From: Escherichia coli
Lineage (GTDB): Bacteria; Pseudomonadota; Gammaproteobacteria; Enterobacterales; Enterobacteriaceae
Assembly: GCF_003018115.1 (NCBI RefSeq)
Contig: NZ_CP027457.1
Length of the DNA: 64,000 nucleotides
Reading direction: 5' to 3' (one strand)
Position numbers and translations under genes: made by a program. The notes under the pieces are model-generated. The model was not told the origin of the DNA. It did not search any database and saw only the letters and a list, made by a program, of their open reading frames with translations. Positions 54,084 through 57,796 of this stretch are shown here, piece by piece. Numbering within the stretch: the stretch's first letter is position 1; every line of letters begins with the position of its first letter.

Positions 54084-54995
54084 ATGGATGACTGTGGTGC
54101 GGTTTTGCATAATATTGAAACCAAATGGCTTTATGATTTTCTGACCCTGGAAAAATGCCGCAATTTTTCCCAGGCGGCAGTCAGTCGTAACGTCTCGCAA
54201 CCGGCATTCAGCCGCCGCATCCGCGCGCTGGAACAGGCGATTGGCGTTGAATTGTTTAACCGCCAGGTGACGCCGCTGCAACTCTCAGAACAAGGGAAAA
54301 TCTTCCATTCGCAGATCCGCCATCTGTTGCAACAGTTAGAAAGTAACCTTGCAGAGCTGCGTGGCGGCAGCGATTACGCGCAACGTAAAATCAAGATAGC
54401 CGCTGCACACTCTCTTTCCCTCGGTCTGTTACCGTCCATTATCAGCCAGATGCCGCCGCTCTTTACCTGGGCGATTGAAGCTATTGATGTCGATGAAGCG
54501 GTCGATAAACTGCGCGAAGGGCAAAGTGACTGTATTTTTTCCTTTCACGACGAAGATTTGCTGGAAGCGCCGTTTGACCACATTCGCTTATTTGAATCTC
54601 AATTGTTCCCTGTCTGCGCCAGTGACGAACATGGAGAAGCACTTTTTAACCTCGTGCAGCCACACTTTCCGTTACTGAATTACAGCCGCAACTCCTACAT
54701 GGGGCGATTGATTAATCGCACCCTGACGCGCCACAGTGAGTTAAGTTTCAGCACCTTTTTTGTCTCTTCGATGAGCGAGCTTTTAAAGCAGGTTGCCCTC
54801 GACGGCTGTGGGATTGCCTGGCTGCCGGAGTATGCCATCCAACAAGAAATTCGCAGCGGGCAGCTCGTTGTACTGAATCGGGACGAACTGGTGATCCCGA
54901 TTCAGGCCTACGCATACCGGATGAATACCCGCATGAATCCCGTTGCCGAACGCTTCTGGCGTGAACTGCGCGAGCTGGAGATTGTGCTTAGCTGA
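54084..54995 (+). CDS. hypT: LysR-family transcriptional regulator (hypochlorite-responsive HypT/YjiE)
   Basis: 303-aa ORF with N-terminal LysR HTH ([23 protein letters not shown]). Confidence 0.85.
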
Positions 54996-55380
54996 CATTC
55001 TCAAGCGTCGCACTGCGCCAACCGCCATTATCCCAGACCAGATCAAACGTTAGCGGTTCATCGTCGTGGTACAGCATTATCTCAAGGCTGATCGCCAGAG
55101 TGTGGCAGTACGCTTCTTTCAAATTAACCTGCAACGCCGCAATCCGTGGCTCATGAAATAACAGTGCAGAACGCAGCTGACGGCAATACCAGCTCTGGAG
55201 ATGTTTGTCGCTCGGGTTATGCACTTGCCACTCGGGCATGCCTGAAACAAGTAATGACGGTAATGCCGAATGAGGAGAATTAAAAAGAGTGAGGAGATCG
55301 CTGCATACCGATTTACGCAGCAATGACGTTTTATTGCCTGAAATTTTAGGTAAAACAGCCTGAAGTGATTGGCGCATCAT
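54988..55380 (-). CDS. iraD: Anti-adaptor protein IraD (stabilises RpoS by inhibiting RssB)
   Basis: Translation from [25 protein letters not shown]... (130 aa); 3' end overlaps the hypT 3' end by 8 bp (convergent). Confidence 0.8.
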
Positions 55381-56051
55381 TTTGCGCACTCCTGACGTTT
55401 AGCAACATATGCGGCTTGCCCTGAACACCGGGCACCACTGTATTGATGCTCATTTTCCATAGCCATTCCCTTTTGTTCATTACATCCATGTCAGTCTGAG
55501 ACAGGCTTGAATCCTGTCAGCAAAGTATAAAACCTTACTTGCCTATGAATATCTACTGACTTTTCAGGAAAAAAGTCATGATTTGATAAAAATCATCAAA
55601 CTCAAAAAAAAACCGCTAGTATATTCTGAATATTCCGAATAGTTACGTAGATGAAAATACTTGTCACCGCTGCTACTTAATTCCGGTGGGAAATTATTTA
55701 TTTCCGCATAATCAGCCATGTATCATTTGAAACAATTAGTTTGTAAATAATATAAATTGATAACATATCAAATACATCAAAAATACCATTCACAGGCATT
55801 ATTAATATAGACCTCAATATAGCAACATCAAATTCCAATTAGTAATAAGATATGCTTTTAAATTGCATGCAAATAATTTTAAATGAGCGTTTTTTGATAC
55901 TTTAGAGTGTTTCCTACCCTTTAATATCACTGTGTAGAGTTGATATCACTACAACAGAAACATGCATGTCATTTTTTTACTTCTTTTTTACTACAGAAAA
56001 ATTTATCTATTTTTCTAAACATCAGTGAAATACTCATAAAAGGTAACTATT

Positions 56052-56882
56052 ATGTCTATGCCATTAAGCAATGCCCTTCAGAGTCAAATTATTACAGATA
56101 ATCACTTCCTTCATCATCCCAAAGTCGACAATAAGTTAACACGTGAATATGAATATGCACGCATGGATACGGAAAACATCTATCTTCTGCCTCTTACTCG
56201 TGGCAATAACCATAATTATGATGGAAAAAGCGTTGTCGAAATTAGAAAACTTAATATTAGCAAACAGTCCTGGCCATTTAATTATGTGACAGAAACATGC
56301 AGAGAATTCAATGGTATTACAACAACAGGACGAATGCTCTATCGAAACTTGAAAATCACCTCAGCTTTAGACGAAATATATGGTGGCATATGTAAAAAGG
56401 CGCATGCTGCCACAGAGTTAGCAGAAGGATTATTGCTAAATTTATTTATGAAGAGCCCTTTCGATCCTGTTGAGGACTATACAGTTCATGAAATAACGTT
56501 AGGCCCTGGTTGCAATGTTCCTGGTTACGCCGGAACCACGATAGGATATATTTCAACCCTTCCAGTTTCTCAGGCAAAAAGATGGACCAATGAGCAGCCA
56601 AGAATTGATATCTATATTGATCAGATAATGACGGTAACAGGGGTAGCAAATTCTTCCGGATTCGCCCTTGCCGCATTACTTAATGCTAATATTGAGTTGG
56701 GTAATGACCCAATCATTGGTATAGAAGCCTATCCTGGTACCGCGGAGATCCATGCAAAAATGGGATATAAAGTTATCCCCGGTGATGAAGATGCGCCACT
56801 CAAACGCATGACTCTGCAACCGTCATCTCTTCCAGAACTGTTTGAATTAAAAAATGGTGAATGGAATTATATTGGTAAATAG
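56052..56882 (+). CDS. yjiC: Uncharacterised protein YjiC
   Basis: 276-aa ORF preceded by a roughly 670-bp AT-rich intergenic region; synteny and recalled YjiC N-terminus. Confidence 0.75.
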   Translation: MSMPLSNALQSQIITDNHFLHHPKVDNKLTREYEYARMDTENIYLLPLTRGNNHNYDGKSVVEIRKLNISKQSWPFNYVTETCREFNGITTTGRMLYRNLKITSALDEIYGGICKKAHAATELAEGLLLNLFMKSPFDPVEDYTVHEITLGPGCNVPGYAGTTIGYISTLPVSQAKRWTNEQPRIDIYIDQIMTVTGVANSSGFALAALLNANIELGNDPIIGIEAYPGTAEIHAKMGYKVIPGDEDAPLKRMTLQPSSLPELFELKNGEWNYIGK

Positions 56883-57022
56883 CCACTGAGAAGAATGAGT
56901 ACTAATATTCAGGTTATACAGATATTTAAACAATACCCTGCAATTTACAAAGTAATACTCATTGCGACTTCTTAATTTAAGAAAGCGCAAGGAACGTTTA
57001 CCCTTGCGCTTATTATAATAAG

Positions 57023-57796
57023 TCAGGCGTCGACTTTATCCAGCGGCCATGAATCAAAGAGATAGCCGTCAAAATAAATATCGTCAACGTTCGAGAATTC
57101 CAGCAGACGTTGCTTAACGTTTTCCAGATGCTGCCACATTGCCAGCTTCGCCGCTCGGGCATCTTTTTTGATTAACGCGGCGAGGATCTGTTTGTGATCG
57201 CCCAACCACTCTTTGCGATACAGGCTGTCATCCAGATGGCTGTGCAACTGGATCCACATTGGATTGTTTTCCCGCCACTGCCAGGACTGACGGAATAACT
57301 CCACCAGCATGCTGTTATGCGTTGCTTCGGCAATGGCGAGATGGAACTGCATATCACCGCTTTCGCTGCTACCCGGCGCGCTGGAAGCCAGTTCACGCTC
57401 TTCCAGTTGCAATGCCTGACGCATTTTGACGATATCTTCGCGGGTAGCCTGCAAAGCGGCAAACTCGGCGATGTTGCTCTCCAATAACTGCCGCGCCTGT
57501 AACAGCTCAAAAGGACCGGCATCGTTGCAGACGTTGGCATCCGGACTGTCTGTGTTCTGGCTGCCTGAGTTATCAAGAACATAGATACCGGCACCCCGGC
57601 GTACTTCCACCAGCCCTTTGATCTCCAGCATGATCAGCGCTTCACGTACCACCGTCCGCGTGACATCAAGCATTTCTGCAATTTCACGCTCCGGCGGCAG
57701 CCGTTCGCCAGGATTGTACGGCGTCTTTATGATCAGATCGCGGATCATCGCCCCGACTTCCTGGTAAGGTCTTTGCGCAGAGGTGGCAGATTTCAT
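57023..57796 (-). CDS. uxuR: GntR/FadR-family hexuronate regulon repressor
   Basis: 257-aa ORF with N-terminal GntR HTH and FCD domain. Confidence 0.9.
   Translation of the reverse strand: MKSATSAQRPYQEVGAMIRDLIIKTPYNPGERLPPEREIAEMLDVTRTVVREALIMLEIKGLVEVRRGAGIYVLDNSGSQNTDSPDANVCNDAGPFELLQARQLLESNIAEFAALQATREDIVKMRQALQLEERELASSAPGSSESGDMQFHLAIAEATHNSMLVELFRQSWQWRENNPMWIQLHSHLDDSLYRKEWLGDHKQILAALIKKDARAAKLAMWQHLENVKQRLLEFSNVDDIYFDGYLFDSWPLDKVDA

Follow-up and report, generated by a model that had tools for sequence, protein, structure and literature searches.

The window analysed in this study is a 64,000-nucleotide stretch of Escherichia coli DNA in which the annotated gene order iadA, hypT, iraD (minus strand), yjiC (plus strand), uxuR is found. 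Between the start codons of the divergent genes iraD (55380) and yjiC (DUF2686; 56052..56882, with its start codon at 56052) lies a spacer of 671 bp (55381..56051) with a GC content of 31.9%, compared with 50.7% for the whole window; just 1.4% of 671-bp sliding windows are equally AT-rich. In the 50 kb of annotation considered, no other gap between conventional genes is as long, the runners-up measuring 467 and 393 bp, and published work has described the region upstream of iraD as “unusually large”. The GC content falls along the spacer, from 48% (55381–55520) through 29% (55521–55800) to 26% (55801–56051). The preliminary description of this DNA, made from the sequence alone, gave the extent and AT-richness of the gap correctly, but wrongly termed it non-coding: RefSeq places idlP, ytiD and ytiC (or a shorter ORF) within it, and translation of all three has been published.

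Relative to K-12 MG1655, the spacer carries four substitutions (55507, 55724, 55931 and 55975) and a 1-bp indel (55984), none of them in a described element, corresponding to 99.3% identity over 671 bp. With only 5/671 differences, the experiments and literature on K-12 transfer to this spacer. The iadA-hypT-iraD-yjiC-uxuR synteny, together with the near-identity to K-12, identifies it as the iraD P1/P2 promoter-leader region, that is, the iraD control region of E. coli that is already well studied, and as such it is nothing new.

Two iraD transcription start sites have been mapped in K-12, at −417 (P1) and −137 (P2) (Park 2017; Sass et al.), which correspond to 55797 and 55517 in the window. 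For P1 (55797..55831, minus strand) a promoter scan returned the match TTGATG-16-TATATT, with the −35 hexamer at 55826–55831 and the −10 hexamer at 55804–55809, ending 7 nt upstream of 55797. For P2 (55517..55529, minus strand) a −10-like TATACT at 55524–55529 was read from the sequence, and dependence on σ70/σS is described in the literature. The published start sites and the promoter elements upstream of them bear out the earlier expectation that the spacer holds the iraD promoters; the yjiC promoter presumably also lies inside it. P1 is regulated, and part of the induction of iraD by AZT and in stationary phase comes from it. Because the published P1 start maps to 55797, iraD leader transcripts cover approximately 62% of the spacer (55381–55797), and the length of the spacer is largely due to this 417-nt 5′ leader rather than to an unannotated small transcript.

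The transcriptional inputs reported for iraD are ppGpp, SspA, DnaA-ATP (genetics) and HusR (a SELEX site). The putative “−81” DnaA box, TTTTCCATA (55453..55461, plus strand), is present in the window, and a relaxed DnaA-box scan returned only this box and another one-mismatch site at 55742–55750. Both genetics and EMSA were positive for DnaA at the −81 box (Sass et al.); however, DnaA ChIP-seq did not detect binding at iraD, and for this reason the DnaA input is disputed. PMC12844172 reports a HusR (YnfL) site at iraD from genomic SELEX, and this sequence, CCGCTAGTATATTCTG, is also present (55613..55628, plus strand).

The iraD-proximal leader contains idlP (ORF27; 55377..55460, minus strand), which encodes the 27-codon iraD leader peptide AAAATGATG according to RefSeq and whose TGA stop codon overlaps the iraD ATG (ATGA). 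The iraD Shine-Dalgarno sequence AGGAGTG (GGA at −12), placed from the sequence at 55387..55393 (minus strand), is invariant in seven Escherichia lineages; it is sequestered in a hairpin and does not bind CsrA (Park 2017). RNA folding likewise predicts a hairpin surrounding the iraD AUGA, and the P2 leader alone folds no better than shuffled sequences (z = −0.3). The GGA motifs of the CsrA sites BS4, BS3, BS2 and BS1 are found on the minus strand at 55456–58 (−78), 55467–69 (−89), 55485–87 (−107) and 55512–14 (−134), respectively, with BS3 overlapping the idlP Shine-Dalgarno sequence. All five GGA motifs (−134, −107, −89, −78 and −12) match the offsets of Park 2017 exactly, while CsrA binding itself is taken from the K-12 literature. 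In that work, CsrA footprints were obtained at the four leader sites, ORF23, ORF47 and ORF27 were found to be translated, and iraD was found to be coupled through ORF27; CsrA represses iraD entirely by blocking idlP translation, and BS1 is effective only on P1 transcripts (Park 2017).

A megablast search of 5,426 complete E. coli genomes found the locus in almost all of them; it exists in two haplotypes. The arrangement of the window is present in approximately 90% of genomes; in the ∼490–530 genomes without yjiC, the iraD–uxuR gap is only ∼413 bp and the AT-rich segment 55645..57022, which takes in P1 with the distal part of its leader as well as yjiC and the DNA upstream of it, is replaced by ∼150 unrelated bases. 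Homology between the two haplotypes extends from inside iraD to 55644, at ∼72–77% in the leader, and stops beside a palindrome at 55622–55641. In the yjiC-less type, iraD and its leader are ∼72–82% identical to the window, and the flanking uxuR and hypT genes 94–96%. Outside E. coli, this type is seen in E. whittamii and in one further Escherichia species; three separate equivalog models exist for IraD in NCBIfam. In E. albertii, yjiC is diverged (63% amino-acid identity) and the spacer measures 654 bp, of which only the proximal 277 bp aligns (80%), together with a 22-nt patch, AAATGAGCGTTTTTTGATAC… (55881..55902, plus strand), that is the only distal spacer sequence shared with this species. 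In both species the patch and the start of yjiC are ∼150 nt apart, and it is a possible candidate for a yjiC control element (promoter or operator). No paralogous copies of the distal AT-rich segment were found in the E. coli genomes searched, where it is single-copy.

The part of the spacer conserved across the genus is the proximal 264 bp (55381..55644, minus strand), which holds the P2 leader, the P2 promoter and a cluster of inverted repeats and shares 72–80% identity with its counterparts in E. albertii, E. whittamii, E. coli without yjiC and others. Among 12 haplotype-A genomes, 4/264 sites are variable in this block, compared with 29/393 in the iraD coding sequence (54988–55380) and 42/407 in the distal spacer (55645–56051), and the numbers of genomes at least 99% identical to the window are 4,777, 714 and 956, respectively. 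The proximal block is significantly less variable than the iraD coding sequence (Fisher p = 4e-4), in which 18 of the 29 variable sites occupy codon positions 1 or 2. The IdlP protein is identical in 12/12 haplotype-A genomes, and its 27 codons and the ATGA overlap are retained in 7/7 lineages of the Escherichia leader alignment (the window, yjiC-less E. coli, E. albertii, E. whittamii and others). Of eight genomes spread at random, two have an iraD pseudogene (internal stop, frameshift) and three a disrupted yjiC (IS1 insertion, frameshifts). A scan of a genome collection with IraD returned six loci, all from Escherichia except one on a contaminated contig: NZ_ABFU01000118.1, a 605-bp sequence filed under Bacillus coahuilensis m4-4 that carries idlP, the end of hypT and an IraD 98% identical to that of E. 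coli, has almost certainly entered the Bacillus assembly as E. coli contamination.

The P1-specific leader contains two further small ORFs. ytiD (ORF47; 55576..55719, minus strand) is translated (RefSeq, Park 2017), and ytiC (55698..55799, minus strand; RefSeq, Pfam PF23685) has 33 codons as annotated in K-12 and a shorter version in some annotation; ORF23 of Park corresponds to an internal ytiC start at 55766, the 22-codon version of PGAP. The annotated ytiC ATG (55799–55797) coincides with the published P1 start site, so that ytiC would have to be expressed by leaderless translation, from another start site or from the internal ATG at 55766. Searches of NCBIfam returned a model neither for YjiC nor for any of the three small proteins. 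In 3/12 sampled genomes a C>T change at 55717 converts the ytiD start codon from ATG to ATA and W28 of ytiC to a stop codon. Since this single change removes the ytiD start and truncates ytiC, both small proteins are dispensable in those strains, which fits the finding that ORF23 and ORF47 have no effect on iraD expression (Park 2017). YtiC has no match outside the main haplotype and YtiD matches there over its C-terminal half only; in one yjiC-less sequence, translated by eye, the ytiD frame contains a stop codon.

Several inverted repeats cluster upstream of P2. The repeat ATGATTT-gataa-AAATCAT pointed out in the preliminary description is real and lies at 55578–55596, one base away from the position first given; an alternative 8-bp register is available on the iraD-strand RNA at 55581–55601. 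Across the seven lineages the 55578–55601 repeat keeps 91% of its pairing potential with no compensatory change. A second repeat, TGACTTTT-n6-AAAAGTCA (55557..55578, 8-bp arms), is located just upstream of the P2 −35 region; it is invariant in the 12 haplotype-A genomes, and across Escherichia only 73% of cells are paired. It may be a UP-like A/T tract or form an RNA hairpin in the P1 leader. A 20-bp imperfect palindrome, TATTCTGAATATTCCGAATA (55622..55641), adjoins the haplotype breakpoint, homology with yjiC-less genomes ending at 55644, and a further inverted repeat with 8-bp arms is found at 55995–56016. When perfect 7-bp arms with loops of 3–10 nt were counted, the spacer gave five hits (three distinct) against 0.8 ± 1.2 in dinucleotide shuffles, an excess of about sixfold that 1% of shuffles reached. 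Direct repeats are less convincing. The 8-mer ATATCACT does occur twice, as stated earlier, at 55924–55931 and 55943–55950 (plus strand), but the number of direct repeats in the spacer (four observed, 1.0 expected) is reached by 5% of shuffles and is only marginal, and strains differ at the final base of the first copy (T in 6/12 genomes, C in 6/12 and in K-12). This repeat is probably due to chance.

The segment 55518–55657 folds better than shuffled sequences on both strands (z about −3.0 and −3.7), with flanking coding DNA near zero. As the folding excess is present on both strands and concentrated in this segment, it reflects the inverted repeats as such and not strand-specific RNA structure. 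It may be that the cluster at 55557–55641 consists of upstream or regulator-binding DNA of P2, or of weak hairpins in the P1 leader. A definite form of the former, in which the repeats are not RNA structures at all and instead serve as operators for DNA-binding regulators of P2, HusR or others, deserves tentative consideration, although we would not expect it to hold. The repeats lie at about −40 to −125 from the P2 start site, the palindrome at 55622–55641 shares bases with the HusR SELEX site, the repeat block is invariant within the haplotype and both strands are equally self-complementary, all of which suits operators. However, the HusR site at iraD is a SELEX peak only, the other haplotype keeps the repeats only in part, and the G·U pairs of the 8-bp register favour the RNA strand.

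The same region bears on the proposal, made when the spacer was first described, that its size and composition point to an unannotated small transcript. In its broadest form this would be an independent small RNA, or else a stable fragment processed from the P1 leader, that might for example bind CsrA or Hfq. On the iraD strand, the 280-nt P1-to-P2 segment folds far more stably than its shuffles (z = −4.8 and −4.2), but the opposite strand shares the folding excess (z = −3.2 for this segment and −3.7 for 55518–55657). Permissive covariance searches of 54500–57500 with Rfam models yielded only sub-threshold noise from eukaryotic snoRNA and lncRNA models, the best scores being 25 and 20 bits for eukaryotic snoRNA models whose gathering scores are 50–52. 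A terminator scan found no terminator-like site in the spacer, and no 3′ end inside it is listed in the published Term-seq supplements searched. Explicit pair counting in the seven Escherichia leaders found no pair changed on both sides in three hairpins, and the covariation term given by RNAalifold for the same leaders is only −1.35 kcal/mol; sequence conservation is the main reason why pairing potential persists. The near-invariance of 55518–55644 in the main haplotype, where iraD is variable and sometimes a pseudogene, could be read in favour of an RNA with its own role, yet the P1-specific part is missing from E. albertii and yjiC-less E. coli. The response to AZT, which co-induces ytiC 260×, ytiD 33×, idlP 18× and iraD 14×, could also be taken to favour such an RNA. 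The two-promoter leader model does not by itself account for so steep a fall between ytiC and iraD; however, a gradient is expected if P2 raises the uninduced baseline of idlP and iraD. Taken together, with no credible Rfam match, terminator-like site, Term-seq 3′ end or covariation, the small-transcript claim is not upheld, and we regard a separate RNA from the spacer as very improbable. It is just as doubtful that 55518–55644, a block that includes the 3′ end of ytiD and three inverted repeats, plays a separate part on the P1 transcript, either as an element for leader read-through or processing or as part of a stable, trans-acting ytiC–ytiD RNA induced by replication stress.

Hairpin-plus-U-tract attenuators in the P1 leader were also considered and rejected on reading the sequence, the U tracts being located away from weak stems of A/U pairs only, in keeping with the negative terminator scan. 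Outside the spacer, a published Term-seq 3′ end converts to ∼56889, just past the yjiC stop codon (K-12 4555483, plus strand in K-12); it is annotated as antisense to yjiC, in a table taken to be the Rho-dependent set, and may represent read-through from uxuR.

The distal, AT-rich part of the spacer falls within a published promoter island, “4554354_526 yjiC(−)/iraD(+)”, of 526 bp (PMC3661553 Table 1), which by conversion from older K-12 numbering is inferred to span ∼55517..56041. The island is one of 78 listed and is reported as associated with predicted foreign genes (Panyukov and Ozoline 2013, PMC3661553) and as H-NS-bound in two of three K-12 data sets, those of Kahramanoglou and Oshima (PMC3661553). 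These published ChIP summaries lend support to the nucleoid-protein binding anticipated from the composition; a scan for the high-affinity H-NS motif found a single, uninformative one-mismatch hit in the spacer. The spacer contains four promoter-like sites against a mean of 0.74 per 671 bp of the window (top 3.6%), and its TAnnnT density is in the top 2%. Against composition-preserving shuffles the count is five versus 4.5 ± 2.0, which is the level set by composition, the original island criterion being PlatProm. The presence or absence of the low-GC segment 55645–57022 among genomes agrees with the horizontal association described for such islands. Elsewhere in the window, the densest promoter-like cluster (up to 12 per 671 bp) occurs at ∼42,000–43,000, within the AT-rich gene of a pentapeptide-repeat protein, and may be another H-NS-type region.

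We infer that the distal AT-rich part belongs to the dispensable low-GC segment associated with yjiC. Carried to its conclusion, this would make it no more than silenced DNA beside a yjiC islet gained by horizontal transfer; it would regulate nothing itself, and P1, ytiC and ytiD would be by-products of AT-rich, promoter-like sequence. Such a reading agrees with the absence of 55645–57022 from ∼10% of E. coli genomes and from several other sampled Escherichia genomes (E. whittamii, Escherichia sp. E1V33), the lack of recognisable conservation in E. albertii, the variability of 8–14% of distal sites among 12 genomes, the loss of both ytiC and ytiD through a single SNP in 3/12 genomes, the lack of effect of ORF23 and ORF47 on iraD expression (Park 2017), the shuffle-level number of promoter-like sites (5 vs 4.5 ± 2.0) and the listing of the region in the literature as island-associated and H-NS-bound. 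In this strict form it is unlikely, against it being that P1 is a real and regulated promoter adding to iraD induction in stationary phase and after AZT, and that BS1 acts on P1 transcripts only. For the distal part, it complements the explanation preferred here more than it competes with it.

Our preferred explanation, which we hold with high confidence, is that the spacer is a divergent iraD/yjiC control region most of whose length belongs to iraD, comprising P1 and P2, the CsrA–idlP leader and a low-GC distal part. The elements of this explanation were established in K-12 and are confirmed here only as sequence at the same offsets. In the mechanism shown for K-12, as applied to this spacer, P1 (start site 55797) would give rise to a 417-nt leader and P2 (start site 55517) to one of 137 nt, with both promoters answering to ppGpp and replication stress. 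Of the three translated leader ORFs, idlP alone would matter for iraD: CsrA bound to the GGA sites around the idlP start would block idlP translation and would repress iraD because iraD is translationally coupled to idlP. DnaA-ATP (through the −81 box), SspA and HusR may act as additional transcriptional inputs. The half extending approximately from P2 to yjiC, low in GC and correspondingly rich in promoter-like sequence, is reportedly coated by H-NS and would have been gained or lost together with yjiC.

IraD stabilises the stress sigma factor RpoS, and this spacer is the point at which the general stress response receives signals of starvation (ppGpp, SspA), of carbon status (CsrA) and of replication stress (DnaA, RIDA). 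Since its biology is already established, the finding by itself adds nothing new; the modest added value is the population picture. The proximal leader/P2 block is far more tightly constrained than iraD, and P1, ytiC and ytiD travel with the dispensable yjiC. This suggests that E. coli lineages wire iraD induction differently.

The closest known system is the ytiC-ytiD-idlP-iraD region of K-12 itself (Merrikh 2009, Park 2017, Sass 2022), which is the same locus with the same synteny and a spacer 99.3% identical. The P1 and P2 hexamers, the four CsrA GGA sites, the idlP ATGA overlap, the DnaA box and the HusR site are all found at equal offsets, and the two differ in five nucleotides, one of which results in N26D in YtiC. 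The spacer also resembles promoter islands such as those at appY, leuO and the fim switch in being AT-rich, richer in promoter-like sites than most of its window and located beside predicted foreign genes (Panyukov and Ozoline 2013). However, promoter islands are described as almost silent in transcription, whereas this spacer contains at least one well-documented productive promoter, P1, and borders P2. With the CsrA-repressed leaders of glgC, csrA and pgaA, iraD shares multiple GGA sites in the 5′ leader, repressed translation and faster mRNA decay. In those leaders, CsrA occludes the Shine-Dalgarno sequence of the target itself, whereas at iraD it spares the Shine-Dalgarno sequence and blocks the upstream idlP, from which coupling transmits the repression.
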